Virus record (IMG/VR): IMGVR_UViG_3300025327_000013
Reading direction: 5' to 3' (one strand)
DNA length: 64,000 bases
Source: an uncultured virus (IMG/VR IMGVR_UViG_3300025327_000013)
Taxonomy: Duplodnaviria; Heunggongvirae; Uroviricota; Caudoviricetes
Part shown: positions 1 through 50,800 of the stretch, one piece after another
Layout of the letters: each line of letters begins with the position of its first letter
Position numbering within the stretch: the first letter of the stretch is position 1
The notes under the pieces: model-generated
The model's database searches: none
Told to the model about the DNA's origin: nothing
What the model saw: only the letters and a program-made list of their open reading frames with translations
Made by a program: the position numbers and the translations under genes

Positions 1-2399
1 CGAGGGCGAGGATATACCGTGCATCGCCGGCATTGTTGATTTTGTCGAACACGGAGACATAGTACGCCGCTTCCTGATAATGCCGATCGCCGCACTTACA
101 CCAGAGCCCGCGGAAAACATGTGGGCGGATCATGAAAGACGATTTTTCTCTAGCGCGCGGCGCACGCGCTCAGCCGCCTCGGCAGCGCAATGATCACAGT
201 AATACGGTAATTCTACTCCGAAGCGCCGATAGAGTGTTCCACATAGCATTGTGCCGCCGTTTGTGCCAATGACATAGGTGAGCTTGCCGCAACCTCCCAT
301 GTTCATCCTCTCGGCTCCTCATCCTTCCGCCCAGCCCACAGCCGATCCTTGCCATGCCGATGCTGACCGGGAAGGACACCGTAAGCGAGCAGGTATTCCC
401 TGAGCAAGTACGCGGCGTCCCTGCGCGTGGAGGCGCGGTCGATGACCTCGGGAGGCTTGCCTTCGTAGCGATACCAGATGGAGATCATACGTTCTCCTCA
501 ATCGTTTCGCCCATTTCGATCAGTTCTTGGTACCCGTCGCCTCCGTCTGCGGCCCAGCTGCAGAAACAGCGTGCCAAACCTCGATGATCGCCGCACTCGT
601 CGCAGACGTAGGCACCGCAATAGCGGCTCATCGCGTACTCATGTCTGTGGGTCATGGTCCTGATTCCTCTCTGTCATGGGTGGATCATAGCGATGCCACC
701 CCGTAGACATGCCACGTGTTTCCAAATGCCAATCGGCGTCAGGTTCAGTCTGACGATATTCACGGAGTATCTTGTAATGATAGGCAGTAATGGTGTCAGC
801 AAACCAAGCACCTCCATCTTCTTGAAGTCTGTTCCTCAATCTCAGTGTTATAAAAGCGGTCATGGTTTCTCTGTAGCCTCCTCCTCTGTCTGACTGTCAG
901 ACGCCTGTTGAAGATAGATCTCCGGTCTGTGCCACGGGCACTCGCATCCTGGACCGTGGAGCCTATCGCGTAGTTCCTTGGAAATTAGGGGTTCGGTCAT
1001 TGTTTACGAGTATTCATCGTCGGTATCTTCAGTGTTACCAGCGAGGAGTTGAGCAGGATCATCATCGGCAAGAAACACCGCAAGGATCTCTGCCGCTCCC
1101 ACTGTTACCAAGGCTAAGTCGGCTATGCGCCGACAACGGTCGCACCGCGATCCTCGTAAACAGTACCCAGTAAGCATGTGCGGATGTGATTTCCAGATGC
1201 AACGCTGGCACCAGGATTGGTGAAAGGTATTGTCTTGCAAGTGTACTGTTGTCATAGTTCTCCTTTATTTGATTGTCTGCTGACAATCAGCAGGTCGCGG
1301 ACCTACGAGCCAGACACCGCCGGCCTTTCCCTCGCGCGTCATGTCCTCTATCCTCGGCCGATCATCGTCAGCAATAAAATTCCAGCCGGTGACGGCGACC
1401 GAGAACGTGCGCGCATCGTCTCGCGTTGCGCCGTATGGATTCCAGTTTTCGATGGGCACCGAGCCAGCGGCGGTGAGCACGAGGCTATAGCCGGCGTGCT
1501 TGACGACGGCGATCGTTTCATTGCGGGTCATCGGATATAGACCATCCTATTCCGGCACTATGAAAGTCGTCATTCGTGACAAATTCTGTGCCGAGAGTAG
1601 GCTTTCCTTCTGCTTGATTACAGAGTCGGAAGTATGCGGCACGGGCGATCCCAGGGGTCAAGATGGTAGCACGCCTAGCTGTATACCACATGGACTCTCT
1701 GGGATCTGGAAATTTGAGCGCTGGTCCAATGACCAGCAAGAATGCGTAGGCGACAGCTTGTCGATGTGTCATGCGTCCTCCATGTTCGTGAGCAGGTCGA
1801 TCCTCTCTGTCTTGGCAATGTGGCATTTAGCTGGAGCGGAGCATCGCGTGTCTATGTCGTACACCAGTGCAGTCGAGTCCATATCCCGCTGGATCATGAG
1901 CGCTAGCTGCGCGGCTTCGCGCGGTGTCCGCGCGGTCAGGTCGATGGACCAGTGGACGGTGTAGTTAGGCATGGGTCGATCGGTCGGCGGATGGCTGTTC
2001 CTTTAGTGCCTCGACAACGGCAGGATGGATAAGCCAATCGTCAAATTCACATTGCGGGCAGCCTTTATTTGCATCGGCAAATTTACTTTGCCAATCGCAG
2101 TTTATGTCGTGACCTTGTATGCGCCATTGGATTAGTGTGTTCGCTAACCGGATTGCTTCGTACGCATTTTTGACTTCCTGATTAGGCATGTGCCCTCCGT
2201 TCTGACGATTCAGTGTGTTTGATTACGCGCAATTCGTGCCTCGCTACATAGTCAACGGGCGGTGTCGTGATACCGGGGCTGTACTCCCAGACCACAAGCA
2301 CCGTGTGCCGATTCCGGAACCCGGCCACCCTGCCTCTCATATCACGGAGCAGCGGAGAATGCCAACCGACCGTGTCGTTGAGACAGATCACTCGAGGGT

Positions 2400-3017
2400 T
2401 CACGCCGGCACCTCTTCCTTGACCCACTTCTCGACGAGCCAATCCGCCTCGGCGATGCCGTCCTTGAGTGACCACCAGGAATAGTCCGCATCGTCGTAGG
2501 ACTCCCACGCCGATTTGGCTTTCCCCTTGCGCATGACGAAGCCCTCGGCACCTAGGGCCAAGGCCACGCGGCCGAGATACTGGCCGTAGGTGACCGGCCG
2601 CCCGTGTTTGGTATCCATCGCGGCCATCTTGCGCTCGAGGACCTTGAACGTGCGGAGCATACGCTCGGCATCGGCCTGTTCTACACAGTGCGGCCGATAG
2701 TGGATCTCCCACGCGTACAGGTTCCGGCCGCGCTCGCTCGCGCGATCATCGTCCGATCCTTGGCTGGATATTTCCAGATCGTTGACGTACAGGCCCGCGT
2801 GGACCTCTGCGTTGCGCAGGCGTCCGAAAGGCCCGTCGGGATCGTGTGCAGGACGCACCTCGATCACGGTCGCGTTGAGATGATAGTAGCCGGATTCGCG
2901 AAGCTCTCGCAGGAGTAGGCGGATGGGGTGCTCGGGCGTCGGGGACTTGCCCATCACGCAGCCCGATACCGGCGGGTCAGATACCGGATATCCCATGACC
3001 GTCCCATGCCCATACAA
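2400..3017 (-). CDS. hypothetical phage protein (true start probably downstream of 3017)
   Basis: 205-aa ORF with protein-like composition in the leftward gene block; no recognisable motif. Confidence 0.5.
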   Translation of the reverse strand: MYGHGTVMGYPVSDPPVSGCVMGKSPTPEHPIRLLLRELRESGYYHLNATVIEVRPAHDPDGPFGRLRNAEVHAGLYVNDLEISSQGSDDDRASERGRNLYAWEIHYRPHCVEQADAERMLRTFKVLERKMAAMDTKHGRPVTYGQYLGRVALALGAEGFVMRKGKAKSAWESYDDADYSWWSLKDGIAEADWLVEKWVKEEVPA

Positions 3018-3390
3018 TCCACGGCTTGCAGGAACTCCGAGAACGTGATGGCGTCCACGTGGACATGTTGGCAGAGCGCGGTCAGGCGATCAATTGGATC
3101 AGTGGCCAGCATCGTGTCGCGGGTGATTTCCTCGTGTTGCTCTGGCGTGAGCAACACGCAATTCTGTAGCACGTCGAGCGCCTCAATCGGGATACGCTCC
3201 TGTGTGATCTTCTCGCGGAGCGGCTTGCGTGGTGGGACAGCGTGGGCAATCTCCAGAAGCGTATTCATGGCGTGTGCCTTTCTGGCGGACTTGTAGCCCG
3301 CCGGTATCACAGTAGATGCTGCGCATCGCTGGCGTGGGTTCCGCCAGGATTTTGGATTACAGAAGCGTTACGGGATCACATAGATAGGCT

Positions 3391-3816
3391 CTAGCGCGGT
3401 TCAAAGACTTCGCCAGTTTCTAGTTTGCACGCATAGCTGTCTTTGCCCTTGCGGTACACCCACTCAAGTTGGATATTCCCGTAAGCCTCGATGATGCCCT
3501 CGGCCCAGAGCTTGTCGCCCTCGGCCCGGAGCTTGTCGCCCTCGGCCCAGAGCTTGTCGCCCTCGGCCCAGAGCTTGTCGCCCTCGGCCCGGAGTTTGTC
3601 GCCCTCGGCCCAGAGCTTGCCGCCCTCGGCCCGGAGCTTGCCGCCCTCGGCCCGGAGCTTGCCGCCCTCGGCCCGGAGCTTGCCGCCCTCGGCCTGGAGT
3701 TTGTCGCCCTCGGCCTGGAGTTTGTCGCCCTCGGCCCGGAGCTTGTCGCCCTCGGCCCAGAGCTTGAGGCGAATCCCCCATACAAATGCAAGGCTAATAC
3801 TACCGGCATTCTTCAT
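3391..3816 (-). CDS. heptad-repeat coiled-coil protein, (KL[W/R/Q]AEG[D/G]) x13
   Basis: GAAAGG RBS upstream; repeat core flanked by unique N- and C-terminal sequence. Confidence 0.75.
3496..3765. repeat. 21-bp tandem repeat, about 13 copies
   Basis: unit gccctcggcc(c/t)(a/g)gag(c/t)ttg(t/c)c is directly visible. Confidence 0.95.
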
Positions 3817-5046
3817 TGACGTTTCCTTTCATCATTGTGCAACGGTAGAACTGCCGCGCATCGTCTGTCTGACAATCAGACAGATTCTGAATTACAGAAT
3901 GGTTACAGGCTCATGAGCCAGACAGCCAGTGCCCACATCACGAGGACCGTGCCGATTATGCCAAGGACCACGGTGGAGTAGTAGCACAGATCGGCCACGC
4001 GGTCGCGCCACGTGCTGGGCTTGGGCTGGAACTCGGGCGGTGGGAGTGGGGTCATGTACGGTTGGCATCGGAGCCAGGAAAAGTAGCTCATAGCGCCATT
4101 CGCTCGAGATTCGGTACAACACAGACTTTTTCGTGTTCGAGTGTTTGTTTTGGTGACACAGTTGGGCCAACAGGCTCTCCACAGAAAACGCAGTAGTAGG
4201 TGATTTTGATGAGCTTTTTGCTTGCATCCATGAGTGTAATCATGTAGAAGCCCCTTTCAGTCTGACTGTCAGACAATCCGGAACAGATACGCCAGTATGC
4301 CGAGCCCGGCCGCGGCGGCGAAGGCCTCGGTCATGTGTGCAGCCAGCCTCCGATGGCGCCGATCGCGGAGGATCCTCTGGCCAGAGGCTTCGATTTCTGT
4401 GAGCATGTAGTCTCTCGGTGGATGCGGTATGAGTTTCATGGGTGATCCTTTCTGGCTGTCTGACTGTCAGACACCCGTGGGAAGCCTGCGCATCGCGGCG
4501 GCCTATTCCGCCGGAATTCGTGTTAGGCTGTTCTCGTCGCGGATTTAGCGCGATTGAGAGATATAAGAATAGATTTGACCGAATGAGGGATGCACCGAGC
4601 AAGCGATGGATAACCGCCTGCGGATTATGCCGCCGTAGGCGGTTCCATTTTAGAGATAAAAACCGATCGCATGCCCAGCGCTATCGTAGACATTGGGATC
4701 GGGCCGATTCGGGCTGGCCGCGATGGCGTCCACGCGGTCCTCGGGCCTCGGCATCGTGACGACTTGGCCGTCACGGATTAGGATGCGCTCGCGTTTCGGG
4801 CAATGCTCGGAGTTCATGGCGTTACTCTGTCAAGACCAGCGCTAGCGCTGCGATTGTGATAGCCCACAGCCAGCGCAATCGGCGCATCGTCCACTCGATA
4901 TCCACCGCCCATTCGAGAAAGGTTTGCTCGTTCATGGCGCGTCCTCCGTGTTCTGTGGATCGGCCCGATCGCCGATCACTGGTGAATGGGATACTGACAT
5001 TTCTGCCGCGTGCGACGATACGTCCGTGCGGTCGCGGCAGGCGAAC

Positions 5047-5079
5047 AAAAAATTCGCCGGGAGCGTAGGCCTCCCGGCG
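5047..5079 (-). terminator. intrinsic terminator
   Basis: minus strand reads cgccgggag-loop-ctcccggcg then aattttttg, just after the stop of ORF 5095..5685. Confidence 0.65.
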
Positions 5080-6318
5080 TGGTGGATCGGTCGATCAACG
5101 TGTGGCGAGTTTCCAGCCCTTCGCGGCTATGGCCTGGGTGCTAACGGTGATGGCATGGCGACGCCGAACGATGGGCGCGCACTTGGCGATAGCAATCCGC
5201 ATGGCCCAGAGCACGGCTTGCGGGCTGGGCAACTGGCGAGGCAACTGCACGCCGATCTTGTGACGCGGTGCGTCCATCAAGCCACGGATTAGGCCATCGG
5301 TTGCGATTGGCGGCTGTGCTTTTAGCGGCAAACCGTCGATGCTGAATCCTGCTGCCGGCGGATTAGGGAGCACGCCAGGTTGCCTGGGCGGATCAAGCCG
5401 AACTATGGCTGGATTCAGGGCACGCTCGATTGCTGCCCTGCACTCGAGTACGAAACGCATCTCGTCCTCGGCATCGTACCATCGTCCCGGGCGGCGATGT
5501 TCCCAGATCGCCTGCGTGATGGCACGTTCCGGTGGAGCGCCACTCTTGGCGAGCATGACCGCGCGGTCGCGGATCAGGTTGCGCTGGCTTCGCATCACAC
5601 TACCCAGACTGCCGCTTGTTCTTGTGGCTCCGCTTGATCTTCGCGGAGCGCTTGGACTGGATGATCTGCATGGCCCGCATGACATTCGTGAACGGGTTGA
5701 GTACGGCTCCCTGGATGATCCACGGCTTCGTCATGTGATGATCCCTTTCTCTTTATTCAGTACGGGTTTACTTCTCCTCGTAATCCGCCACGCCCATCGG
5801 CCGGCGGCCTTTGGCGGCTTGCAGGGACAGCTCAACCTGACGCATTCCTGGGGCCATGCGCGAGACAATCACACCGGACGGTGGATCGAGCCCGATTGCG
5901 GTTCCTGGCTCCGCGTCACGCTGGCCTGTTCCTTCGGCCTCGAGGTGCCACGCATCGCCACGATATTCGTACAGGCGCCATTTTGGCCAGCCGTCCACTG
6001 TTCCACGTGGAACGACTTGCTGATACAGCCGACCGCGTGGACGCTTCGTCCACCATTGCCGTGGATCGGTCGATTGCCCGTCGATTCCGAATCCCCTGGG
6101 CGGGGGTTCCCGCTGATTCCCGATCATGGCTCCGGGTTCCTCCCATTCGGCGCGATAGGCCGATCCGGGGTGTACTCCAACCCGCCGATACTGAATCGTC
6201 AGTATGCTGGCGGCTTCCACGTCCATGCGGTCACAGTCTATGACCCTCGCCTGACGGCCTAACTGTGGTAACTGGACATACAAATAGCCGAGGGGTTTAC
6301 CTCGGCATCTTGTCTAAC

Positions 6319-6384
6319 GCTGGGGGTTGGGACCCAGCATCCGGTTTAGTTGCCGCCAGTACTGGCGCGGCAACCCCTCACCTA
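6319..6384 (-). ncRNA. twister-ribozyme-like motif, copy A (circularly permuted)
   Basis: minus strand: ggu GA-GGG [P1 guugccgc..gcggcaac] UAA acc GG au [P4 gcuggg] U-CCC-AA-CC [cccagc]. Confidence 0.55.
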
Positions 6385-6385
6385 A

Positions 6386-7156
6386 CTACGCGGCCACAAG
6401 CCTAGCGGCCTTGTCAGCCGCGTCCTTGACTCGCCATGCCTCGTTCACGAGCTCCGCCAGACTGGCCAGTTGCGCGGTAGACAGCTTGGGTAACCGCGCT
6501 TTGAGGTAGTTACTGATCTGCACGTCCAGAGCCTTAGGCTCTGGGGTACTGCCACCAGAACCACGGAGCTCTGCCCCGGCAAGCTTGGCGCCAACACGGC
6601 GCCGATAGTCGCGCGTATTGCGTGCGGCCTTCAACGCGGCCTTATCGCCTTCGGCCACGTTGAAGAGTATCGCCGTTGCGGCATCCATGGTCGGGAAACC
6701 GTGAATGGACTTGTATGCGGGTGGGCATCCGACACTTCCAATGTCGAAATACTCGAAAAACATCAGGAAATGCGGGCGGCACGTCTCGACCATCCCCGCC
6801 TCGGCGGTGTTCAGCGCATTGGTGGCAGTGCCGATAGACTCGGCAACAACCTTCCGTCGTGCCAGCATGGTCCCGAGCGCATCGGCCATGTCGTTGATGG
6901 TCGCGCCAGTCTTGAGAGGGTCAGAATCGCCGCTCGACTGAAGTGGCGCGGCCATGCGCCTGGCCTCTGCCTCAGCGTCCACGCGGGCGCGTTTGGCCTG
7001 CTCTGCTTTGGCCACACGATCCGCCTTTGCCTCAGCCTTAGCGGCCTTGACTGCCTCAGTCTTGGCCAGTAGCGCGTCAGCCTTAGCCGTGAGCGTAGCC
7101 GTGAGCGTATCCTCAGCGGCAAGGCTTGAACCATTCTCACTAATGAGAGTGTCCAT
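6386..7156 (-). CDS. Ala-rich 256-aa hypothetical protein lying between the two twister-like motifs
   Basis: long ORF; ATG at 7156 preceded by GGAG; helical Ala/Lys-rich N-terminal half. Confidence 0.75.
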   Translation of the reverse strand: MDTLISENGSSLAAEDTLTATLTAKADALLAKTEAVKAAKAEAKADRVAKAEQAKRARVDAEAEARRMAAPLQSSGDSDPLKTGATINDMADALGTMLARRKVVAESIGTATNALNTAEAGMVETCRPHFLMFFEYFDIGSVGCPPAYKSIHGFPTMDAATAILFNVAEGDKAALKAARNTRDYRRRVGAKLAGAELRGSGGSTPEPKALDVQISNYLKARLPKLSTAQLASLAELVNEAWRVKDAADKAARLVAA

Positions 7157-7342
7157 GATTGATTGATTCTCCAGGTTACTGAAACGTAAGAAAGGTTGAG
7201 ACCATTCTGAATGATTCAGTATGGTTCCACCTTTCAGTCTTGCGGCCCGACCCATCGGCCGCGCGTTAGGCAATGGCCCTATGCCAGTGTCGCGCCTTGC
7301 GTCATGCGTCATGCGTGTTCACCACCTTTCAGGGTCAAGTTA

Positions 7343-7411
7343 GGCTGGGGTTCGGACCAGCCATCCGGGTTACTGGTAGCGTCCATGTGGACGCATACCA
7401 GCCGTCACCTA
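7343..7411 (-). ncRNA. twister-ribozyme-like motif, copy B
   Basis: minus strand: ggu GA-CGG [P1 cuggua..uaccag] UAA ccc GG au [P4 ggcugg] U-CCG-AA-CC [ccagcc]; pseudoknot covaries with copy A. Confidence 0.55.
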
Positions 7412-8727
7412 GTGCCGCCCCATCGCCACAGCAAGCGCCGTACTGCCATCGTGGAGAGACTTGATGAGACGTAGGCACCGGACACACAGGATCATCCCAG
7501 CGTAGGAGCTACACTCCCGCTTGATCCCACACTGCCTGCACGGCTGAAGGTTGCGCGCCCCACATCCTGGCTTAGCATCCCGCATAGCGTCTTGCATGGC
7601 CCTATACTCTCGAGAAGTTTACGGGCAGACCCTGGCGAACCTGTGCCATGGCCCACGAGGCAAGGCGAGCGTAATGATGCGCGGCATACCAGGATGCCTT
7701 GAGGTAGTGCCCGTTGCGAGCTGCGCGTGCTTCACGAGAGTTTTGCATTGTCTCTCCTATTGCGAGCAGGGCTCGCGCTCAGACTGTGAGCCTACTAATC
7801 CGCCGCACAATACCGTTGCAAACGGTGTACCAGGTAAATGAACCGTTGTTCATTCTGTAAACTATTGAAAAAGTTAGTGTTTAGTTAGGGTATGTAAATT
7901 AGACATACTATACTTCCAGAATGGAAGTGGGTTAGGCTCGGGCAGAATGGGCGTCACGTAGTTGACATGCGGTGTAAGTGTGCGGAAAGAAACACTTGTC
8001 CGTTTTCAAGTGTCAATATCGTGACAGTGTGTAAAACTTACACCTGGTCAAGAATTGAATACACTAACAGTAGTGTCAGCTCGAGCATGACATACATCCT
8101 GCGGTAGTCAGACCTTGGAAAGCATACCTCGTGTGCGGCTCCAGGAGCACCGTACAGCGTACCTGTGTTGCTGGTAACCCTATCCTACGTGGACGTCAAC
8201 GGTAGCGTTACTTTTCAATGAGTTAGGCGTGTGTAGAGCTGAGGTATCAGGGGCCTGAAAGCCGCTTGACTGGTGACGAAAAGTGTCAGTCTGCCTAAGA
8301 ATTAGGCAACTTGTTAGACTGCGTGTAAAACTTACACAGTGTCAGTCTAAATATCAACTAGTTAGTCGAAATATCGACTGCTATGTAAATATTACACAGT
8401 GTCTCATAAATGAGACAGTCAAGGTTTCGTGCCAAAAAACCCTGACACTTGGCCTGGCGCAAGTGGCCCAGCAGAGGCAGACAAGTAGCAGTCATAGGCC
8501 AGCGCCATGCTGAGCTATAGGCTTTTCCTATGACACACAGCGTCAAGGGCCGTCTGAGCGCAGGGCGGCGCCCGGCTGTGCCCTGGCCGGCCCACTGACC
8601 TACGCTCGCATCGTGCCCCCCGCATTCAGCTGCATGAGTCCCACGAACAAGGTCCCTCTGCCGGCCGCACTGTACTCAAAGTTCACCGCAACAATTTCAG
8701 CAACATATGCCAAAATCCCAGCAATCC

Positions 8728-8756
8728 TTGACACACATAACGAAATAGGCTAAACA
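8728..8756 (+). promoter_or_regulatory. possible sigma70-type promoter for the rightward block
   Basis: TTGACA-17 bp-TAAACA just upstream of ORF 8763; the -10 match is imperfect. Confidence 0.35.
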
Positions 8757-9030
8757 CGAGGTATGTCAGGCGGGCCATTCACGCACACAAAGTTCTACAC
8801 GTGCTCAACCTGTGGATATTGTTACTGTAATCACGCACAGAAGGTTATGGACAATCGTGTCTTCTGGCTGTGTCCTGATCGGTCTGAGCGTCCTGATTTT
8901 GCAAAGCGGCTCAAGCTAGCGGTACCTGATCCGACTGGTGAGCTGGTGCCGCGCATTGGGAAGTGTAAACAGCCAATGGCTCGCATTTTATAAATGATGT
9001 ACGTGGACCATATTACTGAGGTCAGCGAAA

Positions 9031-9096
9031 TGGTCACAGACTGTAGCCACAATTCTCTTGACAAAGGGTTATCTGTAGCCACAGACTGTAGCCACA
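9031..9096. promoter_or_regulatory. putative operator repeats CTGTAGCCACA (9041, 9073, 9086) around TTGACA (9058-9063)
   Basis: three exact 11-bp quasi-palindromic copies, the last abutting the ATG of the RHH gene. Confidence 0.65.
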
Positions 9097-9486
9097 ATGG
9101 CAAAGGACGAATTGATCAGATTTCGTGTAACGAATGAAGAGAAACTATTGATCGAACAGGCAGCGAAAGGGCAGGATATTTCCGTGTCAGCGTGGATAGT
9201 AGTAACTCTGGTCGAAGCAGCACGACCTGGCGTACTTAATAAGGCGGCACAAGATTTAGTGGATCCAGTCGCTCCACTAGTGGCTGCGCGTCGGAAAGCA
9301 AGGCATATGGCCGCCGAGAAAGGCCTCCCGGAGCCAACGTTCAAGGGGCCAGCAGAAGGACACGCGCCGTCCTGCCAGTGTCTTAGTTGCCGTCAAGAGC
9401 GCTCGAGTTCAGTTGAGATTGAGGGAGCTATCACGCCGCGGTGTTCTAAGCACAAGTATCTCGTACCGTGCCCGCGGTGTAGCTAA
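9097..9486 (+). CDS. ribbon-helix-helix DNA-binding protein with Cys-rich C-terminus
   Basis: N-terminus ELIRFRVTNEEKLLIEQAAKGQDISVSAWI fits the MobC/DUF1778-like RHH pattern. Confidence 0.7.
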   Translation: MAKDELIRFRVTNEEKLLIEQAAKGQDISVSAWIVVTLVEAARPGVLNKAAQDLVDPVAPLVAARRKARHMAAEKGLPEPTFKGPAEGHAPSCQCLSCRQERSSSVEIEGAITPRCSKHKYLVPCPRCS

Positions 9487-10163
9487 TTGGTATACGAGGA
9501 AATAAATCCACGAAACCATAAACCTGATCGAGCCAAAACGGCTCGCGACGTGTGGGCTGCCTCCGCAGCCCGGTCCTAGCTAGGCCACGGCGGTCGGTGG
9601 CATACCGGCATTCCGGGAAAGAATCCGGCATCAGGTTGATTTTCTGGAGAAAAGATATGATTCAGGTAACAGAGCCCGCGTGGACGCGGTTAGAGGAAGC
9701 GCTGTGGGAGATGTACGCTCAAGCGTGTATGGATTGTGATACGAAGCCAACGCTCAAGGTAATCAGGGCTTGGATGGAATCAATCACGGAAGTAGAGGTC
9801 GTCGGTTCGTGATACGCCCCAGATGGTCGTGGAGTGGTGTCTCTGAGGAAGTTGTGAAGCTAGACCTACATTACGAATCCACCGGAATCCGTGACCATGC
9901 GGACGCTACCTGATAAAGAATATCGTGTCGTGTGGCAGCGGGCAGGGAATCGCCGTAAGGTGAAACGCTGAGATGGTGCTGTTCAGGGCGGGAGTGTGCC
10001 TGTGACGGTATTACTGTGAGGGAAGAAACAGCGCAACAGCGTGAAAAGATGCCAGAATTGCTCTATGCTAGGATTGATGACGACGTATCGGAAAGTGGGC
10101 AGTATTTCGTAGTTGACATCCGTCACGAAATAGCCTATTGACGTGGCAGGAGGTAATAACGAA

Positions 10164-24120: not shown

Positions 24121-25004
24121 CGATAAAATAAATCCAGAAGATCATTTCTGGATGGGTCTCTCGCAAGCGCCGGATATTGAGCGGATGCCGGCAGTGGTGC
24201 TTTGTCCCGCAGGTCATCGAGCGTATCGGCTGATTCTCGAGTTGACGGCTGACTCTGAGCATGACCCTGTACGTGTTCCAGCCTACGGTTGTCAAGCCTG
24301 TCAGGTCCTTTATAGATATCAGGAATGTCCGCGCCTTCCACCAGGGGAAGAAGGCCTCCCTCCGTGTGACGAGACACCGGCATGACATGTCGAGATTTCT
24401 TTGCACGTTTTGCATGGCTTCCGTGTATGTCGGCAGGTGTAGTGCCACCGGAGATCGTGGATGGGTCGGCGTCCTTTGATGACAACGTGGAGGTCATGGT
24501 GCAGGCTGTGACGAAGACATTTGAGCGCGACGTCCGCCGCGGTCGCTTGCCGCAGGTGCTCAATGGGGGCCAGCGTGGCTGAGTATTCCCACGAAGGCGC
24601 ATCGATCTGGGGTTGGTCGACCTTCCGCGCGCTGGCGAAGCACTTTCGTCTGACGGTCTCTGCGCGCCTGACGCCGACGTCTGAACTCATGCTGACGCCC
24701 TATCGCACACAGATGATCGAAGAGGAGGAGCGGGCGCGGCACGAGATGGAAGGGGCGATCGGCGCGTGGCGCCAGGATCTGCTCGTCGGGACTCGGCAGT
24801 GTCCTGCCAAACATCCGGTGATTCCATATGAAATTCGCGTGTCTATGCCGGGGGCGAGTCGGCGCCGCTGGATCCAGTGTTTTCCGAGCATGGAAGGGAA
24901 TTCGGCGGGCTACGTGCCGGTACCAGTGTTTTTTTGTGCCGTGTGCGTTGGGGTATACCGGCCGCGTGAGGTCGAGGTCGTCAGCCAATCAAGCGAGGTG
25001 CCAC

Positions 25005-25562
25005 GTGTCTAGTAAGTACGAGATTGTTGATCGTATTTGTAAGATATGCGGGCAGGAGTACAAGACACAGTTTTGGCGTAATCTTTATTTCTGTAGCAGA
25101 TCCTGTTATCACGTATCTAAAGTCGGAGCGGGGAATCCAAAATGGCGGGGTGGTGAAGTGATCAACAAAGGTTATCGGTACATGTATAACCCGAGTCATC
25201 CAAATGCCACAAAGCAAGGATATGTATTAGAACACCGGCTTGTTATGGAAAGTGCCACTGGGCGGCTTTTGAGTCGTAAGGAAGTCGTGCATCATAAAAA
25301 CGAGAAAACGCTAGAGAATAATCAGGAAAATCTTCTTGTGTGCGAATCCAACGGTCATCATATTTCTGCACATCATCATCCTGATGGCGGCAAGTTTAAT
25401 AGAATGAAGACTCATTGTTTACGTGGGCATGAGTTCACGTTAGACAATACAGTTATACATGTTTGTTTGGGAGTTAGAAAACGTATGTGCAAGGCGTGCG
25501 AGAGCGATAGGAAGAAAAGGGTGTATTGGAATAGGAGGCAAGCAAGTGCGCAAGCCGTGTGA
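25005..25562 (+). CDS. HNH homing endonuclease
   Basis: NPKWRGG, YVLEHRLVME, VHHKNE..NN..NL, C-terminal HC..GH..C..C; AT-rich. Confidence 0.85.
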   Translation: MSSKYEIVDRICKICGQEYKTQFWRNLYFCSRSCYHVSKVGAGNPKWRGGEVINKGYRYMYNPSHPNATKQGYVLEHRLVMESATGRLLSRKEVVHHKNEKTLENNQENLLVCESNGHHISAHHHPDGGKFNRMKTHCLRGHEFTLDNTVIHVCLGVRKRMCKACESDRKKRVYWNRRQASAQAV

Positions 25563-30681: not shown

Positions 30682-33453
30682 ATGGCCCTGACGATTCTCG
30701 ACAACGACGAGGCGCTCGCGGCGAATCCCCAGTCGATATGGATGCAGACCGACATTGACGCCGTCATTGCGGGCTTCAACGGCACCTACGTTGTAAGCGG
30801 CGGTACGGTCACAGCCCAGAGCACACCGGATATGACTGTCGCCGTCGCCGCCGGGACGGTAGCGGTGGGCGGGGTCATTGCGGCGCTCGGCGCTGGGAAC
30901 GTGACGATCAGCGCCGCCGACGCGACGAACTCCCGTGTGGACTTGATCTGGTCCGACGAGACTGGGACGCGGGGGATCACCGCCGGGACCGCGGCGGCGA
31001 ACCCGAAGGCCCCGGCGCTCCCCGCGAGCAAGGTCCTCCTCGCTATGGTCTACGTCCCTACGAACGACACCGATATCGACGCTGACCAGATCACCGACAA
31101 GCGCGTGATCGTGCCGCACAACGGCACGGCCGGTACACTCGCCAAGTTCAGCAACGGGACGACCCTGGTAAACTCGATCCTCTCCGAGAGCGGGGCGGTG
31201 GCGACGGTGAATGGGTCGCTAAAACTGGCCGAGCTGGTCGGATCGGAACTGGTCACCAACGGAAATTTTGCGACCGGATCTGCCGATGGGTGGACGACAA
31301 CTGGGTGGACGGTGAACGTCGGTGTGGATGTCCAACATGACACGGGGAACACGACGGCGCTCACGCCCAGCACGCCGATTGTGCCTGTCATTGGCTTGCT
31401 GTACAAACTGGTCTATACCGTCTCTAGCCGGACGGCGGGGACGATCAGCGAGGGCTTCGGCGGCGGCGGGTCTGGCGCAGCCCGTTCCACCAACGCGACG
31501 TTCACCGTCTATTTTCGTACAACTTCGACAGCTAATTTGACATTCACCCCGACCACTGACTTCGATGGGCACATCGACGATGTCTCGCTCATCGAACAAA
31601 TCGGGGGCGTCCTTGTACCGCGAAGTTCTGGCGGCAGCCTTGCGTTCTTGCAGTGGAATGAGGGCACTGGCAGCGGCTCGAACGCCAGTGTCAGTGTCGG
31701 GCCGTTCGCTGGCGATATCCAAGCGTTACGGAACACGTGGATTGGCGGGCGAGCGGGTCCCACAAACAAACAATCGGTCGGCACGGACAATGCCGTAGTC
31801 GGCTATGGCTCGCTCGTAGGCACGACGAGCCAACAGGTCGGTTCTCGTAATCTCGTGATCGGCGCCGAGGGCATGAAGTCCTACGGTGGCGATGATGTGA
31901 TCGCATTCGGGAATCGCATCGGGTTTGACGTGACGAACACGATGGAACGCACGATCCTCATCGGCCACAATCGCGCAGCGGCGGCAAGTGTTGGTGACGT
32001 GGGGAGCACGGACGCAGTCATCATCGGCAACATCATTGCCGATTCGGACCCTGACCTACTGGACTTCAGTATCATCATTGGGGCTGAGGCGCTGGGCGGC
32101 GTGAATGCGGTCGGCATCGGCTATGACGTGAGCGCGATCGCCAATACGATTGCGATTGGCTACAAAGCATCCACGTCGGCGGCCAATGATCTGGTCATCG
32201 GGGGGAATGATGTCGCCGCTGGCGGCGTGACACAGGCCTATATCGGAGCCGGCAAAACGAAAGTCAGTCCAACCGCCGTCACATGGCAGACGACTGGTGG
32301 GAGCGGCACCGATAACGTCGGCGCCGATCTGACGCTGGCGCCGGGTCGCAGCACGGGGAATGCCGCGGCGGGGTCGCTCTTCTTCGCTACGTCGACGCCC
32401 GGCGCGTCCGGGGTGACGCTCCGCGCGCTGGCAAACCGCTGGAAGATCAGCGGGCCGATCCCGGCGAGCGGGAATCTGGGCGACCTCCTCGCCGCTACCG
32501 ATAACGCCGTCAACATTGGGGCTGATGCGGCGAACCGTCCGAAGACTGTGCACGTCGCGACGAGCGTCATCGTAGGCGGCAACACCGTCATCGGGAGCGT
32601 CGCGGGGAAGCTCAACGCGGCGCTCCTCGCCATCGCGTCGCAAGCGACCGGGGATCTGCTCTACGCGGACTCAACGAGTACCTTCGCTCGATTGGCCGCA
32701 GGCGCCACGGGCACCTATGTACGCGGGGCTGGGGCTGGCACAGCTCCGATCATGAGTACGCTCACTCTCCCGAACGCCGCAACGACCGGCGACACGTTTA
32801 TCGCGACGGGCACCAATGCGATGGGAGTCGTCGCAGCGGGGGCGACGGGCGCCTACTTCCGGGGTGCCGGTGCCGCGACCGCACCGATCTGGTCCACCTT
32901 GATCCTACCGAACGGGGCCACGACGGGCGACACATTCGTGGCCAGTGGCACGAACGTGATGGGCGTGGTGGCGGCGGGCGCGGTCGGCACGGTGTTCAGC
33001 GGCGGGGGGGCCGGGGTAGCCCCGTCGTGGCTGATCCCCGGCAATACAACGCTTGTGATTCCAGGCACGAACCTCACGGCGAGCGGTCCGCAAACGAGCG
33101 CGTTCCAGGCCGGGGGGACGATCACCGCGGGGGACCTGGTGATCCTCAACTCGTCGAGCCAGTGGGTGCAGACGGACGCCAACGCGGTGGCGACGTACAA
33201 TGGGCTACTTGGCATCTCGCTGGAGTCGAAAACAGTCGGTCAGGCGATGCTAGTCGCGCTCCCGGGCTCGCTCGTGCGGAATACGGCGTGGGCCTGGACA
33301 CCTGGCGCGACGCTCTACCTCTCGGAGACGGCGGCGACGATTACGGAAACCCAACCCGTGACGACAGACGCGGCGATCCGGGTCATTGGACATGCTGTAG
33401 ATGCAGATGATATTTATTTTGGGCCTGACGGTGCATGGATCACACATGTTTGA
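30682..33453 (+). CDS. mosaic tail-fibre/adhesin protein
   Basis: Gly/Thr/Ala-rich; carbohydrate-binding-like ELVTNGNF segment, YadA-like AVGIG/AIG repeats, internal ~44-aa repeats. Confidence 0.7.
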   Translation: MALTILDNDEALAANPQSIWMQTDIDAVIAGFNGTYVVSGGTVTAQSTPDMTVAVAAGTVAVGGVIAALGAGNVTISAADATNSRVDLIWSDETGTRGITAGTAAANPKAPALPASKVLLAMVYVPTNDTDIDADQITDKRVIVPHNGTAGTLAKFSNGTTLVNSILSESGAVATVNGSLKLAELVGSELVTNGNFATGSADGWTTTGWTVNVGVDVQHDTGNTTALTPSTPIVPVIGLLYKLVYTVSSRTAGTISEGFGGGGSGAARSTNATFTVYFRTTSTANLTFTPTTDFDGHIDDVSLIEQIGGVLVPRSSGGSLAFLQWNEGTGSGSNASVSVGPFAGDIQALRNTWIGGRAGPTNKQSVGTDNAVVGYGSLVGTTSQQVGSRNLVIGAEGMKSYGGDDVIAFGNRIGFDVTNTMERTILIGHNRAAAASVGDVGSTDAVIIGNIIADSDPDLLDFSIIIGAEALGGVNAVGIGYDVSAIANTIAIGYKASTSAANDLVIGGNDVAAGGVTQAYIGAGKTKVSPTAVTWQTTGGSGTDNVGADLTLAPGRSTGNAAAGSLFFATSTPGASGVTLRALANRWKISGPIPASGNLGDLLAATDNAVNIGADAANRPKTVHVATSVIVGGNTVIGSVAGKLNAALLAIASQATGDLLYADSTSTFARLAAGATGTYVRGAGAGTAPIMSTLTLPNAATTGDTFIATGTNAMGVVAAGATGAYFRGAGAATAPIWSTLILPNGATTGDTFVASGTNVMGVVAAGAVGTVFSGGGAGVAPSWLIPGNTTLVIPGTNLTASGPQTSAFQAGGTITAGDLVILNSSSQWVQTDANAVATYNGLLGISLESKTVGQAMLVALPGSLVRNTAWAWTPGATLYLSETAATITETQPVTTDAAIRVIGHAVDADDIYFGPDGAWITHV

Positions 33454-34087
33454 GCGTGGAGATCTGCGCTTTCACTGGTCACGACAACCGAATGCGGAAG
33501 AAATTCGGGCGAGGATTGCCGCTACTAACAAGGCACATTCTCCGCGGTACTGGCTTGGAAGGGTTCATTCTGAGGAAACGAAGCTCAAGGTTAGCCTGAC
33601 GAAAAAAGCAAGCGCAACGACGGTTCGTGGGACACGGCATCATAATTGGAAGGGCGGCGTAACATCGGAACATTCGATCGCACGTAAGAGTCTCCAATAT
33701 GTAACCTGGCGCGATGCTGTGTACCGCCGTGACGGATGGCGCTGTACTGTCTGCGGTGATCGACATGATCTTGTGGCACATCATATCAAGTCTTTCTCGG
33801 AGCATCGAGAGTTGCGCTTTGATATTGCGAACGCTCAAACGCTGTGTCGGGGCTGTCATGCAAAACATCACGGCGTAGCATATATACAGCCGAAGCGAAC
33901 ACCTCGATCTGAAAGTGATCCGATTGCTCGCATTGAACGTAAACGTGAATCGCGGCGACAGTACTATCTGCGTAACCGTGAGCGCTGTATAGCTCGTCAG
34001 ACGCAGCGCTACAAAAATGATCCAGAACGATTTCGGGCTTACGCCCGACAATATTATAAGCGCATGTCTAGCCAGCGTGTGGGGTGA
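33446..34087 (+). CDS. HNH homing endonuclease with NUMOD3-like motif
   Basis: HSEETKLKVS, HNWKGG, RDGWRCTVCG..L.AHHIK..N..TLCRGCH. Confidence 0.85.
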   Translation: MFERGDLRFHWSRQPNAEEIRARIAATNKAHSPRYWLGRVHSEETKLKVSLTKKASATTVRGTRHHNWKGGVTSEHSIARKSLQYVTWRDAVYRRDGWRCTVCGDRHDLVAHHIKSFSEHRELRFDIANAQTLCRGCHAKHHGVAYIQPKRTPRSESDPIARIERKRESRRQYYLRNRERCIARQTQRYKNDPERFRAYARQYYKRMSSQRVG

Positions 34088-38771: not shown

Positions 38772-41528
38772 GTGCCGATGGATACGCTTCTAAAGGGAAC
38801 ACGAGCATCGCAACAAGTATGCTTGCGATTTGTTATCCGTGATCCGCTCGCGTTTCGCGAGTACTGGGTGCCCCAGGTCTCGAAGCTCCGGTACTGGGGA
38901 CGGTATACCTTTGCGGTGCCGATCGCGGCATTGGATGATGGTGATACGCTTGTGCGGGCCGGGAGGGCAGGCGGGAAGTCGTACGCAATAATCCAGCCAG
39001 AACTTGTCCGCCATGCAATGAATCATCCTGGAGAGGAAACACTCCTGACGTCCCTGCGTTTTCTGCATATTATGGATCGCATGGAGCGCGTGATTGACTA
39101 TTTCAACTTGCCGTTTTTTAAGTTGTTCGTGAAGCGTATTATCCGGTCTCCGTATTCCATAGAACTCCGGACGGGGCATATCATTTACGGCCAAAGCGTT
39201 GGAGAAGATTACGATGCGCGCATGATTCAAGGCAAGCATGCATCGCTGCTCATCGTCGAAGAAGCGCAACAGTATCCCGAACGTGCCTGGATTAAGATAC
39301 AGGGCGCGAAGGATCCTCGAGGATCGAGGACGCTCATGGTTGGTGTGCCTGATGGGCGACTGGATACGCCATTCCGAAAGGCAGATTCGATCATTCAAAG
39401 TTTTGCTGATCGACGTTTCGAGATTTCGAGACGTCACGATCCGTTCTTTGATCAACGAACGAAGCGCGATCTTGCGGACAATCTTGACGGGGAAGATTCC
39501 GACATGTTCATTCAGGAGATCGACGCGAAGTGGGGGCATCCCGTGTGGTCCGCGTGGGATCTGGATGCGATCTACAAGTGCCGGGAATCGGCGTTGAGTC
39601 CAGAGTTCTTCGTCATATCCGGTAAGTTATATAAGCAAGCCGGGTTGACGCCATCAGGTGCATGTGGAGATCTTCCGCCGTGTCCGTATGACGGGAGAGT
39701 TCGGCTGGCTATGGACGTCGGGTACTCGCAGCCATCAGAGATACTCGCGTTTGTGTTCTGGGCCAGCCGGTGGCAGTTATTCACACGCGTGCGGCTTATC
39801 AATCGTATGGAGCACACAGATCAGGCGGATATCCTGCATGAGATCGGGAGAAAGTATGGAGCGGATTACATTGGGATTGACACGACAGAGGGTGAAGGTC
39901 GTGCAATTGCGCAAGACATGGAAAGCAAATACGGGTGGGGTGAACGTATTATTCGTGTCGCATTCACGGAAACTCTGCTTTCTGGATGGACGGCTGGGTC
40001 GGTGGACGCTGAGCCAGAAGAAGTCTGGGAACATGCGAAGTCCATCGGGACACGGACCTTGCGTACGATGTTTTCGAAGAGGAACATCGCGATCTCGCAT
40101 GATGAAAGCATTCCGACGGAATTCAATCGGGAGCGCGAGGTAAGGAACCAAGACGGGACAACACGTGTGATTACCCCCTTTGACGTGCATTGTGTTCGTC
40201 CAGATCAATGTGTAACGACTCGGCGAGGTCATATTCCTATCGCCAATATTGTAGTTGGTGATGAGGTCCTGACGCATCGGGGGCGGTGGTGTCGAGTACG
40301 TACTGTCTTATCAAGGCCATATGAAGGCGAAATGATTGGATTGAGGGCTGGATGTAATAATCATGCGTGGGTAACGCCAGAACATCCAGTTCTTGTGCTG
40401 AGAAGAAAGAAAGACTGGTGGACATCTACGAAAACATGTCAGCGCCATTACAAGATTAATCGTAAGGCTAAGCTGGGTCAGCCTGAATGGATTGTAGCCG
40501 GTAATGTAGAAGCTGGTGATTTGATACAAATGGTAGCGGACCATACGAATTACGAGGATCGTGTACCTATACTGCAGATCCTTGATGAATTAGGTAAGCC
40601 TTATGGGCGTCAGTGTGTGTCGAGGCGCGAATATAGGACGAATGTTACACATGTAGTTCCTGCCAAGGTTGAAGTAGATGAGGACCTCGCATACGTTATG
40701 GGCTTGTATCTAGCAGAAGGTTCGGTAGAGCGACAACCGAATGGAAATATTCGTACCTTTTCTTTTGGTTTTCATCAAAAAGAAATTGCATATATTGAGT
40801 GTGTACAGCGTGTGATGCGAGAGAAGTTTGGTCTTCCGTCATCAACTCGGAATGCACCAGGACTCGGTATGCAAGTTGACGTACATTCAGCTGCGGTAGG
40901 AGAAGCATTTGCGAGGGCCTTTGGTGTGCTGTCCGCCAATATAGGTCCACCTCGTTGGCTCCTTGAGGCTCCACGCCAAATAGTTGCGGCGTGGATTCGT
41001 GGATTATTCCAGGGTGATGGATCTAGGTGCACTAGAAATAAAACACCATACTGGAGACTACATACGATCTCGCACAATATGGCTTTGTTAACTGTAGACG
41101 CACTGCGTAGTCTGGGATTTCGGGCCATGGCTGGACTCTACGATAATAGTGTGCGTGGAAAATTCAATAGACAAGACGCGTGGACTCTCAATGTGTCAAC
41201 TGATGTAGCGCCGTTCGATGATTTCATGCGCACTGGTGTTCTGCCACTTCCATGGACATGGAATGAGTGGACGGTTGTACGGCAACCTATTGCGAGACAG
41301 CGGTATTCAGGACTCGTGTATAACCTCGAAGTTGAACACGATGAAACATTCACGGTGAGTGGAATAACTGTTCATAATTGCACTGATGCCTTCCGTGTCT
41401 TTGCTGTCATGGAATTCCTGGAGACGCCCCTGATACCGCCCGATGCAACGGAAGGCGGTGTGTTTGTGGAGTTGGAACATGGGGATCGTCCAAGCCCATG
41501 GGCGCCGGTGACGGCGTATCCATTTTAG
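38772..41528 (+). CDS. terL: terminase large subunit with intein
   Basis: Walker A RAGRAGGKS, Walker B LLIVEEAQ, nuclease MDVG..., IGIDTT, DVH|CTDAFR after splicing. Confidence 0.88.
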   Translation: MPMDTLLKGTRASQQVCLRFVIRDPLAFREYWVPQVSKLRYWGRYTFAVPIAALDDGDTLVRAGRAGGKSYAIIQPELVRHAMNHPGEETLLTSLRFLHIMDRMERVIDYFNLPFFKLFVKRIIRSPYSIELRTGHIIYGQSVGEDYDARMIQGKHASLLIVEEAQQYPERAWIKIQGAKDPRGSRTLMVGVPDGRLDTPFRKADSIIQSFADRRFEISRRHDPFFDQRTKRDLADNLDGEDSDMFIQEIDAKWGHPVWSAWDLDAIYKCRESALSPEFFVISGKLYKQAGLTPSGACGDLPPCPYDGRVRLAMDVGYSQPSEILAFVFWASRWQLFTRVRLINRMEHTDQADILHEIGRKYGADYIGIDTTEGEGRAIAQDMESKYGWGERIIRVAFTETLLSGWTAGSVDAEPEEVWEHAKSIGTRTLRTMFSKRNIAISHDESIPTEFNREREVRNQDGTTRVITPFDVHCVRPDQCVTTRRGHIPIANIVVGDEVLTHRGRWCRVRTVLSRPYEGEMIGLRAGCNNHAWVTPEHPVLVLRRKKDWWTSTKTCQRHYKINRKAKLGQPEWIVAGNVEAGDLIQMVADHTNYEDRVPILQILDELGKPYGRQCVSRREYRTNVTHVVPAKVEVDEDLAYVMGLYLAEGSVERQPNGNIRTFSFGFHQKEIAYIECVQRVMREKFGLPSSTRNAPGLGMQVDVHSAAVGEAFARAFGVLSANIGPPRWLLEAPRQIVAAWIRGLFQGDGSRCTRNKTPYWRLHTISHNMALLTVDALRSLGFRAMAGLYDNSVRGKFNRQDAWTLNVSTDVAPFDDFMRTGVLPLPWTWNEWTVVRQPIARQRYSGLVYNLEVEHDETFTVSGITVHNCTDAFRVFAVMEFLETPLIPPDATEGGVFVELEHGDRPSPWAPVTAYPF
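40191..41378 (+). mobile_element. 396-aa intein with LAGLIDADG endonuclease
   Basis: starts CVRPDQ, has TPEHP block B, LAGLIDADG helices GLYLAEGS and GLFQGDGS, ends VYNLEV..VHN followed by Cys; AT-richer than the exteins. Confidence 0.92.
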
Positions 41529-46186: not shown

Positions 46187-46861
46187 ATGCGCTTAGGCTC
46201 GCATCATACCGAAGATTCTAAGGCTAAAATTGTAGCCGCTAATATTGGACGAGTTCCCAGTGCAGAAACACGCATGAAGATGTCGGCTGCTCACGCTGGG
46301 CAATGTCAGTTTAAGACTATTACTACTTGTGATCTTGAATGGACTGCTGGGTTTTTAGAGGGAGAAGGCACATTCGATTTTTCTAACGGTAGCCAAAATG
46401 TAGGAAAACTGGCTATAGCATGCGAGTAGGTGCGGTACAGGTACAGGCATGGCCCTTGTACAAACTAAAAGATATGTTTGGAGGCAGTATATCTTTTTAT
46501 CCCTCTAAAACCGACGGCGGCAGGTTTATCTATGACGCTTTATTCACTTTTATCTCCTCAGCGCCGGGATCAGGTTTTGAAGAAGTTGACTCTCTGGAAA
46601 TTGCGGCCTATGTCACATAAATTCCAAACGCATTGTTTCAATGGGCATTTATTATCTGGTGAAAATGTATCTGTGTATACGGGTATCAAGGGCAAGAGAC
46701 GGACTTGCTTAACGTGTCAGAGAAAGTACCGCAAGGATAGGCAGTCAGATATGAATCGCCCAATTTGTAAAATGTCAGAATGCGGAATTCCGGTGTTCGT
46801 TAAAGATGTGTGTAAAAAACATTATCAGCGCTATAGGCGTTCGTTGGGAAAAAGGGCCTAG
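46187..46861 (+). pseudogene. frameshifted NUMOD3/LAGLIDADG homing endonuclease
   Basis: three consecutive frames carry HTEDSK/SAETRMKMS, WTAGFLEGEG, LKDMFGG and THCFNGH..C..C. Confidence 0.7.
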
Positions 46862-50279: not shown

Positions 50280-50800
50280 ACGCGAGAACACGCCGACCTA
50301 TAATTATAAAAGACGGTATAGCGTATATAGATCTTGCCGGTAGAGACTGGGCACTTATTAACGAGGAAGATTTACCCTTAGTTAGTAATTGGCCGTGGCA
50401 TAGGATTAGAGGAAAGTATACTTGGTACGCCGCAACAAATATTAGAGTGCCAAGTCGTCAACAAGAATACATGCACAGAATGATTCTTGGTACATCTGGG
50501 AACAAATATACCGACCATATAAATGGTAATGGGCTTGATAACAGACTGATCAATTTAAGGGAATGTACTAATGGTCAGAATATGCGCAACGCTGAAAAGA
50601 GAAAACGTGGCAAAGTTTTATCTAGTAAATATAAAGGAGTATGTTGGTCTAAGAAATCTTCTTTATGGAGAGCAACGATTAAGGAGATGGGCATTCAAAG
50701 ACATATTGGACTTTTTAAGTCCGAGGTGGAAGCCGCTAGGGCTTATGATTCAGCAGCAATAAAAGCATTTGGCGAATTCGCAAGGCCAAACTTCGCATGA
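50276..50800 (+). CDS. HNH-AP2 homing endonuclease
   Basis: MHRMI..DHINGNGLDNR..NLR; AP2 SKYKGV..W.A.I..IG.F..E.EAARAYD; very AT-rich. Confidence 0.92.
   Translation: MNARTRRPIIIKDGIAYIDLAGRDWALINEEDLPLVSNWPWHRIRGKYTWYAATNIRVPSRQQEYMHRMILGTSGNKYTDHINGNGLDNRLINLRECTNGQNMRNAEKRKRGKVLSSKYKGVCWSKKSSLWRATIKEMGIQRHIGLFKSEVEAARAYDSAAIKAFGEFARPNFA

Follow-up and report, generated by a model that had tools for sequence, protein, structure and literature searches.

The window analysed here, a 64-kb stretch of an uncultured virus of the Caudoviricetes (64,000 nucleotides of IMG/VR record IMGVR_UViG_3300025327_000013), contains on its minus strand a single gene bracketed by two short elements, A upstream and B downstream of it, which we identify as twister ribozymes of type P5, a class that reportedly goes back to Roth et al. 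in 2014. The window is phage DNA, with genes for a major head protein, tail proteins, many glycosyltransferases and a large terminase that appears to carry an intein, and its source is a large (at least 129 kb) uncultivated phage of soil or sediment. Read in the direction of transcription, the local unit consists of a 48-codon open reading frame (ORF), a 62-codon ORF, ribozyme A, the flanked ORF, ribozyme B and a probable terminator (Table 1), an order that places A between cistrons and B in the 3' untranslated region (UTR) ahead of the terminator.

The two elements are 66–69 nt long and share one layout, namely UAGGU-GA-NNN, the P1 hairpin, UAA, NCC, GG and A-N, followed by a 6-bp stem whose loop reads U-NNN-AA-CC. 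The pattern TAGGTGA-N20-45-TAANCCGGATG has two matches in the window, exactly at A and B, and had none in 100 shuffled sequences. The hairpin sequences of A and B are unlike, yet pairing is intact in both, and in either copy the two NNN triplets can pair with each other, as CGG/CCG in A and as GGG/CCC in B. An initial annotation, made from the sequence alone, had placed both minus-strand motifs and described their layout correctly, as our own reading and the pattern search agree; it had also seen that the triplets pair within each copy, although it had exchanged the labels of the two copies. Its observation that each element begins at or just after a stop codon holds as well, the stops being those of the 62-codon ORF (A) and of the flanked ORF (B).

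Table 1. Features of the locus, with positions counted from the first letter of the window
Feature	Position	Strand	Basis or detail
Twister ribozyme A, type P5	7343..7411	-	RF02684 26.3 bits; R1 71.1 bits (A is itself among the six training rows of R1); minimum free energy (MFE) fold z -4.0
A: stop codon and P2 5' strand	TAG 7411-7409; GGU 7409-7407	-	stop overlaps P2 strand
A: GA; T1	7406-7405; CGG 7404-7402	-	
A: P1 hairpin	7401-7373	-	12 bp, one bulged U, loop ACAU
A: scissile bond	U7372^A7371	-	
A: P2 3' strand; T2	CCC 7369-7367; GG 7366-7365	-	
A: P4	7362-7357 with 7348-7343	-	
A: loop	7356-7349	-	UCCGAACC, contains T1 CCG and T2 CC
Twister ribozyme B, type P5	6319..6384	-	RF02684 44.6 bits; R1 56.3 bits; MFE fold z -2.0
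B: preceding stop codon	TAG 6388-6386	-	stop of flanked ORF
B: P2 5' strand; GA; T1	GGU 6382-6380; 6379-6378; GGG 6377-6375	-	
B: P1 hairpin	6374-6349	-	
B: scissile bond	U6348^A6347	-	
B: P2 3' strand; T2	ACC 6345-6343; GG 6342-6341	-	
B: P4	6338-6333 with 6324-6319	-	
B: loop	6332-6325	-	UCCCAACC
Predicted excised RNA, 1024 nt	6348..7371	-	U-A cleavage rule (PMC5408937) applied to the sequence
Flanked ORF	6386..7156	-	256 aa from ATG 7156, or 308 aa from ATG 7312
Upstream 62-codon ORF	7409..7597	-	two CxxC pairs, zinc-ribbon-like by eye
48-codon ORF	7602..7748	-	AGGAGAG before ATG, read by eye
GC-rich hairpin with T-runs on both strands	6287..6306	.	terminator scan of both strands; -17.3 kcal/mol, z -3.7

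Identity of the two elements

When positions 6200-7500 were scanned against all Rfam models, the Twister-P5 model (RF02684) matched both elements, B at 6382..6321 (E 1e-7) and A at 7409..7345 (E 0.0048 on this 1.3 kb, 0.24 on 64 kb). B lies above the curated cut-off of 37.6 bits and A below it; the Rfam model does not score pseudoknots, and the exchanges in T1 and T2 and the bulge in P1 are penalized in copy A. A scan of the 64-kb window at the gathering level reported neither copy, and a second 64-kb scan also missed B. Because B exceeds the cut-off in the 1.3-kb scan, we attribute the miss to filter loss; ribozymes of this kind, missed as they are by filtered Rfam scans, are therefore probably under-annotated in phage genomes.

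Twisters are defined by the essential stems P1, P2 and P4, by two pseudoknots (T1, joining L1 with L4, and T2, joining L2 with L4), by some ten letters that are conserved in L1 and L4 and by a U-A cleavage site, with P0, P3 and P5 optional and T2 described as a “conserved GC” (PMC5408937). The alignment of A and B to RF02684 runs in the order of the P5 permutation, that is, P2 strand, GA with T1, loop-closed P1, U^AA, P2 strand, T2, A, and P4 with L4; P1 is loop-closed in both, and the termini fall between P4 and P2. MFE folding alone recovers P2, P1 and P4 in each copy. The UAA, the GA before T1, whose G we take to be the catalytic guanine, and the letters G-UCC-N-AA-NN-C are invariant in one of our alignments of relatives (A2) and agree with the core letters of the family consensus. 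A and B depart from that consensus in a P2 shortened to three positions, the A-U pair of the consensus being deleted on both sides and only two positions being always paired, in a T2 of GG/CC where the family has GC/GC, and in the absence of P3 and P5. The initial annotation had called the motifs twister-like, with the P5 permutation, GG/CC in place of GC/GC, a short P2 and no P5, and the RF02684 alignment together with the covariation in relatives described below bears this out. Since all features that define the class at sequence level are present, alongside the model scores and the covariation, A and B are type-P5 twister ribozymes, an identity settled as far as computation can settle it.

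Relatives, covariation and placement between genes

Relatives were sought with a 24-letter core pattern that put no constraint on P1, on the four outer pairs of P4 or on either side of the first T1 position. It retrieved one viral contig (RF02684 36.7 bits), 17 metagenome stretches and two stretches from metagenome-assembled genomes (MAGs); six of the 17 metagenome stretches represent the same phage, with both copies identical, and one of these lies on a 128,929-bp contig. A covariance model, R1, was then built from six in-register sequences (copy A and five metagenome relatives) using nested pairs only. In the window it found A, B and no other sites, the next match scoring 9.1 bits, and in other loci it detected extra copies beyond those that the pattern had fetched. 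Among viral contigs the GG/CC form of T2 is the rarest: one stretch has it, whereas 15 have AC/GU and 20 have GC/GC. R1 gave 63 matches in 32 of the 35 viral loci with AC/GU or GC/GC (three overlapping duplicates were omitted).

Some matches were rejected. Those in a Planctomycetaceae MAG (L022, and L006, its metagenome duplicate) and a Nanopelagicales MAG (L023) are chance matches in which P1 and P4 are unpaired and R1 gives 11 bits; three viral matches of the first core pattern likewise showed no twister stems on reading and are put down to chance.

Two alignments, one of 17 distinct sequences (A4) and one of 53 distinct sequences from viral contigs (A5), were used to assess covariation. Standard pairs fill 95.0% of pair cells in A4, compared with 32–50% when the partners are slid, and both partners vary at 15 of the 20 pairs; the corresponding figures for A5 are 98.3%, 30–55% and 17 of 20. 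P1 covaries at six of six pairs and P4 at five of six, and P4 is extended by an invariant G-C pair (17/17 in A4 and 53/53 in A5). P2 covaries in A5 (GC/CG; UA/AU/GC), and its third pair is unpaired in nine of the 17 rows of A4, copy A included. Because R1 contains nested pairs only, the alignment was made without fitting to either pseudoknot. T1 is nevertheless 100% paired, with two of its three pairs changing on both sides: the first position, which the search pattern left free, occurs as GC, CG and UA, and the second shows a GC-to-UA exchange in A4, although positions two and three were preset as GG/CC in the rows found by pattern. Both pairs of T2 change on both sides, in the forms GG/CC, AC/GU and GC/GC, and T2 is paired in 94% of cases in A4 and 94–96% overall, figures that include many rows in which it was preset by the pattern. 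The initial annotation had proposed a search with a model built from both copies; the model built here, on copy A and its relatives, recovers a family in which both pseudoknots covary.

The same relatives reveal a strict relation to genes. After eight same-contig or near-identical loci had been dropped, 35 non-redundant loci with 66 ribozymes remained, and 58 of the 66 ribozymes start within -3 to +12 nt of the stop that closes an open frame 40 codons or longer, compared with 11% of random positions. The start of the next ORF of at least 40 codons lies a median of 18.5 nt past the ribozyme, a figure given without a random control, and AGGAG stands directly 3' of several ribozymes. In 15 of the 35 loci there are two to seven copies, always on the same strand and spaced by a median of 673 nt (range 303–3892), and one 7.5-kb stretch carries seven. 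Single bracketed genes occur elsewhere too (94 aa in L007 and L010; 118 aa in L016; in L011 a 349-aa DUF932 protein and one of 118 aa), and the neighbouring genes are phage genes, such as those for small and large terminase, a sigma factor and GP88/DUF7227. Like the prophage elements described by Perreault et al. in 2011, then, A and B belong to sets of at least two predicted self-cleaving ribozymes on the same strand that flank single genes or short blocks in phage DNA. The pair is one case of a common phage arrangement in which two to seven ribozymes stand in a row between genes. It embodies no new mechanism: these are type-P5 twisters punctuating phage operons, here with the rarer GG/CC form of T2 and a minimal P2.

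One operon, on an IMG/VR contig of 47,721 bp (L054), has seven type-P5 twisters in 4.1 kb of the minus strand (1316-5442) and mixes two forms of P2, GGUGA/ACC and the GCAGA/UGC of the Rfam consensus.

The transcription unit and its surroundings

The flanked ORF, whose N-terminal part is alanine-rich, has two candidate starts. Codon scores (+0.19 for 7156-6386, -0.15 for 7312-7157) favour ATG 7156; ATG 7312 is preceded by the Shine-Dalgarno-like sequence AAAGGTGG nine bases 5', lies 29 nt past the model match of ribozyme A, is the start chosen in a public gene call and has a spacing that fits the placement rule of the relatives. The choice between them is ambiguous. The gene is an ORFan: its product has no relatives in IMG/VR, found only itself among 5.8 billion proteins and has no match in Pfam or PHROG, and in the ESM Atlas the best value was 0.89, to unnamed viral clusters that were all under 0.9.

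Upstream, the 62-codon ORF has a poor codon score (-0.20), but its TAG forms the first three bases of ribozyme A, at the very site where 58 of the 66 related ribozymes have a stop. The 48-codon ORF before it is probably the first gene of the leftward unit. At the other end, the hairpin lies 13 nt downstream of ribozyme B and, judged by the terminator scan and its predicted fold, probably ends transcription in both directions, that of the leftward unit and that of a possible convergent gene, the plus-strand ORF 5339-6262. That ORF is covered by a public gene call, with a self-match only, and codon scores are near zero both for it and for the competing minus-strand ORFs 5768-6283 and 5095-5685.

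A megablast of positions 4000-10000 against phage sequences in GenBank gave no match. The nearest virus record (G001) is without this region and without a twister match, which is uninformative because it is a fragment estimated to be 35% complete. Four low-coverage DNA sequencing runs yielded near-identical contigs over the covered parts of 6200-7500, none of them spanning the whole stretch, and in those parts there was no variant within either ribozyme and there were no joints. In one low-coverage run (X17) position 7331 changes from A to T and a C is inserted after 7329, both slightly 3' of P4 of ribozyme A. Between ribozyme A and ATG 7156 the sequence CTGAAAGGTGG occurs twice on the minus strand, at 7331-7321 and 7236-7226, about 95 nt apart, and the second occurrence leads into a near-perfect palindrome of 12 bp at 7226-7198 (ACCATACTGAAT / ATTCAGAATGGT), read by eye. 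The repeat and palindrome may serve as an operator, fold into an RNA hairpin or belong to the 308-aa frame.

Elsewhere in the window, a 400-aa TnpB-like protein is encoded inside the phage at 18264-19466 (+), with OrfB_IS605, Cas12f1-like TNB and HTH_OrfB_IS605 domains and the PHROG label ‘transposase’. The large terminase (918 aa, 38772-41528, +) has weak Hint, intein-splicing and LAGLIDADG matches over residues ~474-869, all but one below the Pfam cut-offs, which suggests an intein with a homing endonuclease. Five plus-strand ORFs of homing-endonuclease type (24828-25562, 33401-34087, 46187-46429, 50276-50800 and 53095-53730) carry HNH, HNH_3 with an AP2 domain, NUMOD3 or LAGLIDADG_1 domains, and three of the five are interspersed in a long cluster at 43.5-56 kb whose genes are of glycosyltransferase, sugar epimerase and CmcI methyltransferase type.

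Proposed cleavage of the message, rival readings and known systems

The initial annotation had presented the locus as a special system for excision, and perhaps circularization, of a natural mRNA, and had offered simple segmentation of the transcript as the conservative alternative. It is the alternative that our results favour. We consider it probable that A and B are active twisters that trim a gene-length mRNA, with a hairpin at either end, out of a polycistronic message. Each ribozyme would fold during transcription, its stems P2, P1 and P4 locked by the pseudoknots T1 and T2, and would cleave between the U and the A of its UAA. The cut positions given in the initial annotation, U7372^A7371 and U6348^A6347, are 1024 nt apart and consistent with the twister rule of cleavage at U-A, and the anatomy of the locus soundly implies that two such cuts would free a 1024-nt RNA with the entire ORF. 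Cleavage of A would detach the 256/308-aa cistron from the two small ones upstream of it, and cleavage of B would remove the terminator hairpin. The released mRNA would begin with 5'-OH-AA, followed by the P4 hairpin (the 3' half of A) ahead of the Shine-Dalgarno-like site, and would end in the P1 hairpin (the 5' half of B) with a final U bearing a 2',3'-cyclic phosphate. The P5 permutation would provide each fragment of an array, at its 5' and its 3' end alike, with a stable hairpin and an unusual terminal group. Ends of this kind may make the stability and the translation of a cistron independent of its neighbours, in the manner of engineered ribozyme insulators. Whereas the identity of the twisters, their position relative to genes and their recurrence in arrays are direct results of the computation, cleavage itself, the end chemistry in vivo and the effect on stability and translation are what we infer from them.

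Several points weigh against this reading. Copy A scores under the Rfam cut-off (26.3 against 37.6 bits) and has a U·C mismatch at position 3 of P2, which leaves P2 with two Watson–Crick pairs only, as well as the bulged U in P1; the mismatch may be tolerated, since it is also present in nine of 17 distinct relatives. Segmentation accounts for A better than for B, because B lies in the 3' UTR before the terminator with no second cistron behind it. The promoter of the unit was not located, a sigma-70 scan giving one hit, on the opposite strand, where 4.0 were expected, and among the listed sequencing runs that hold this DNA none is of RNA. Lastly, the effect of a 5'-OH and a cyclic phosphate on the life of an mRNA in the host of this phage is an assumption.

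Cleavage could instead be conditional, tuned by the terminating ribosome (the stop overlaps P2), by a factor or by an ion, so that the ribozymes would set the expression of the flanked gene; B, for example, would lower expression by taking off the terminator hairpin. The overlap of a stop codon with the 5' edge of the ribozyme in 58 of 66 cases would suit such control, a review cites reporter experiments in which twisters in the 3' UTRs of bacterial genes affected expression (PMC6765202), and regulated cleavage was raised for phage hammerheads by Perreault et al. (PMC3088659). However, A and B have no ligand-binding or extra domain, P3 and P5 being absent, and genome economy explains the tight packing of stop, ribozyme and start equally well. 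We regard conditional control as unlikely.

A further possibility is a nuclease-resistant, translatable circle, which would arise if the 1024-nt RNA were sealed end to end, either by host RtcB or by a twister acting in reverse on a hybrid core formed from the 5' half of B and the 3' half of A. A 5'-OH and a 2',3'-cyclic phosphate are the right end chemistry for RtcB, and these are the ends that the excised RNA would have. The P5 permutation would leave complementary ribozyme halves at the two ends, cells commonly have RtcB (it is present in 10 of 14 control genomes), and a hybrid T1 would pair at all three positions in 24 of 31 neighbour pairs of relatives, compared with 51% of unrelated pairs. 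Against this, T1 within a single ribozyme is paired in all 66 cases, so that the hybrid T1 is not under the same constraint, and the hybrid core in the window is mismatched (T1 2/3, P2 2/3). The two 50-nt ends gain -6.7 kcal/mol by pairing, which 52 of 200 shuffles equalled or bettered. RtcB (PF01139), to which the initial annotation had pointed, was found neither among the 115 ORFs of the window that were scanned nor in the nearest virus record. Perreault et al. looked for circles and spliced RNAs from prophage genes flanked by hammerheads and reported none (PMC3088659), and no natural twister-flanked circular mRNA of bacteria or phages is among the literature matches listed, whose coverage leaves out subscription journals. 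The closing of this RNA into a circle is quite improbable, and the complete scheme, in which the halves of A and B re-pair as a hybrid core and the reverse ribozyme or host RtcB then closes a circular translatable phage mRNA, marginally more so; were it true, gene-length circles would be a general product of phage twister arrays. An array of a common type, ends that pair no better than shuffles, a mismatched hybrid core and no RtcB among the scanned window ORFs or in the nearest virus record lend no support to a special excision and circularization system.

The ribozymes might, alternatively, serve as module boundaries, their conserved cores acting as recombination points at which cassettes of gene plus ribozyme are gained, lost and swapped between related phages, with the A/B pair marking one such cassette. 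Indeed, three related metagenome contigs (L007, 1583 nt; L010, last 750 nt; L018, 1166 nt) differ by whole cassettes whose edges fall inside ribozymes. With ribozymes written X, Y and Z, L018 reads X-[111 aa-90 aa]-Z, L007 reads X-[94 aa]-Y'-[111-90]-Z and L010 reads X-[94 aa]-Y/Z hybrid, the hybrid joining the 5' half of Y to the 3' half of Z, while the middle ribozyme of L007, Y', is a chimera with P4 and T2 broken. These differences suggest recombination at conserved ribozyme cores, and the flanked gene in the window is an ORFan, as an exchanged cassette might be. The covariation, however, reflects selection on a folded catalytic structure and not merely on a DNA repeat, and no variant of the phage lacking the cassette was seen in the covered parts of 6200-7500 in the four low-coverage runs. 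A role as boundaries, very unlikely as the explanation of A and B, would in any case be compatible with cutting of the message and would not replace it. That A and B are not ribozymes at all but chance resemblances, plain hairpins (terminators or protein sites) or sites of RNase III type is close to refuted, for although copy A falls under the cut-off and the gathering scan of the whole window was silent, the latter is a filter loss, RF02684 matches both elements, no hairpin model predicts covarying pseudoknots, and pattern matches without paired stems (L006/L022, L023) stop at 11 bits with R1.

The preferred reading, cutting of a polycistronic message, has engineered counterparts. RiboJ is an engineered ribozyme insulator, and Tornado is a twister-flanked cassette for circular RNA in which the end chemistry is that expected here. 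In engineered ribozyme-assisted polycistronic expression (pRAP, PMC9872166), as in our reading of the locus, a ribozyme between cistrons gives each message its own ends, whereas A and B are natural and phage-borne. Retrozymes (PMC4918200, PMC7229834) are alike in having a pair of flanking ribozymes whose cuts produce 5'-OH and 2',3'-cyclic phosphate termini. Unlike retrozymes and Tornado, the locus has no end-joining stem, its 50-nt ends being no better than shuffles, and no ligase gene was found in the 115 ORFs of the window or in the nearest virus record; unlike retrozymes, it has no reverse transcriptase and no retroelement repeat structure.

The role of self-cleaving ribozymes in bacteria and phages is described as largely unknown (PMC6765202), and in this respect the locus is a clean minimal case, in which two ribozymes and a terminator accompany one ORFan gene. 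The locus and its relatives supply a strict placement rule, with the stop in the first bases of the ribozyme and the next start about 18 nt behind, and natural T2 variants in the forms GG/CC, AC/GU and GC/GC. The two-ribozyme unit is also small enough to clone, so that one could ask whether ribozyme-made ends stabilize, insulate or circularize phage mRNA.

Among natural systems, the type-P5 twisters of RF02684 share with A and B the order of elements, both pseudoknots and the conserved core letters, and B passes their curated score; A and B differ in the three positions of P2, the GG/CC of T2 and the lack of P3 and P5, and standard filtered Rfam scans miss them. The closest parallel in arrangement is provided by prophages in which, as described by Perreault et al. 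in 2011, multiple hammerheads flank single genes or short blocks; these cut polycistronic transcripts of about 2 kb in vitro, and processing into gene-length mRNAs was proposed (PMC3088659). The idea of gene-length cutting was therefore already known, and a 2019 review proposes processing of polycistronic transcripts for both hammerhead and twister ribozymes and notes their link with phage genes (PMC6765202). Common to those prophages and the present phage are several same-strand ribozymes between phage genes of variable identity, the proposal that they cut out gene-length mRNAs and the consideration of circular or spliced products. The ribozymes there are of another class and their cleavage was assayed, whereas here it is predicted from sequence; and here, unlike in the prophage hammerheads, the stop codon lies within the first bases of the ribozyme and the next start follows about 18 nt after it.

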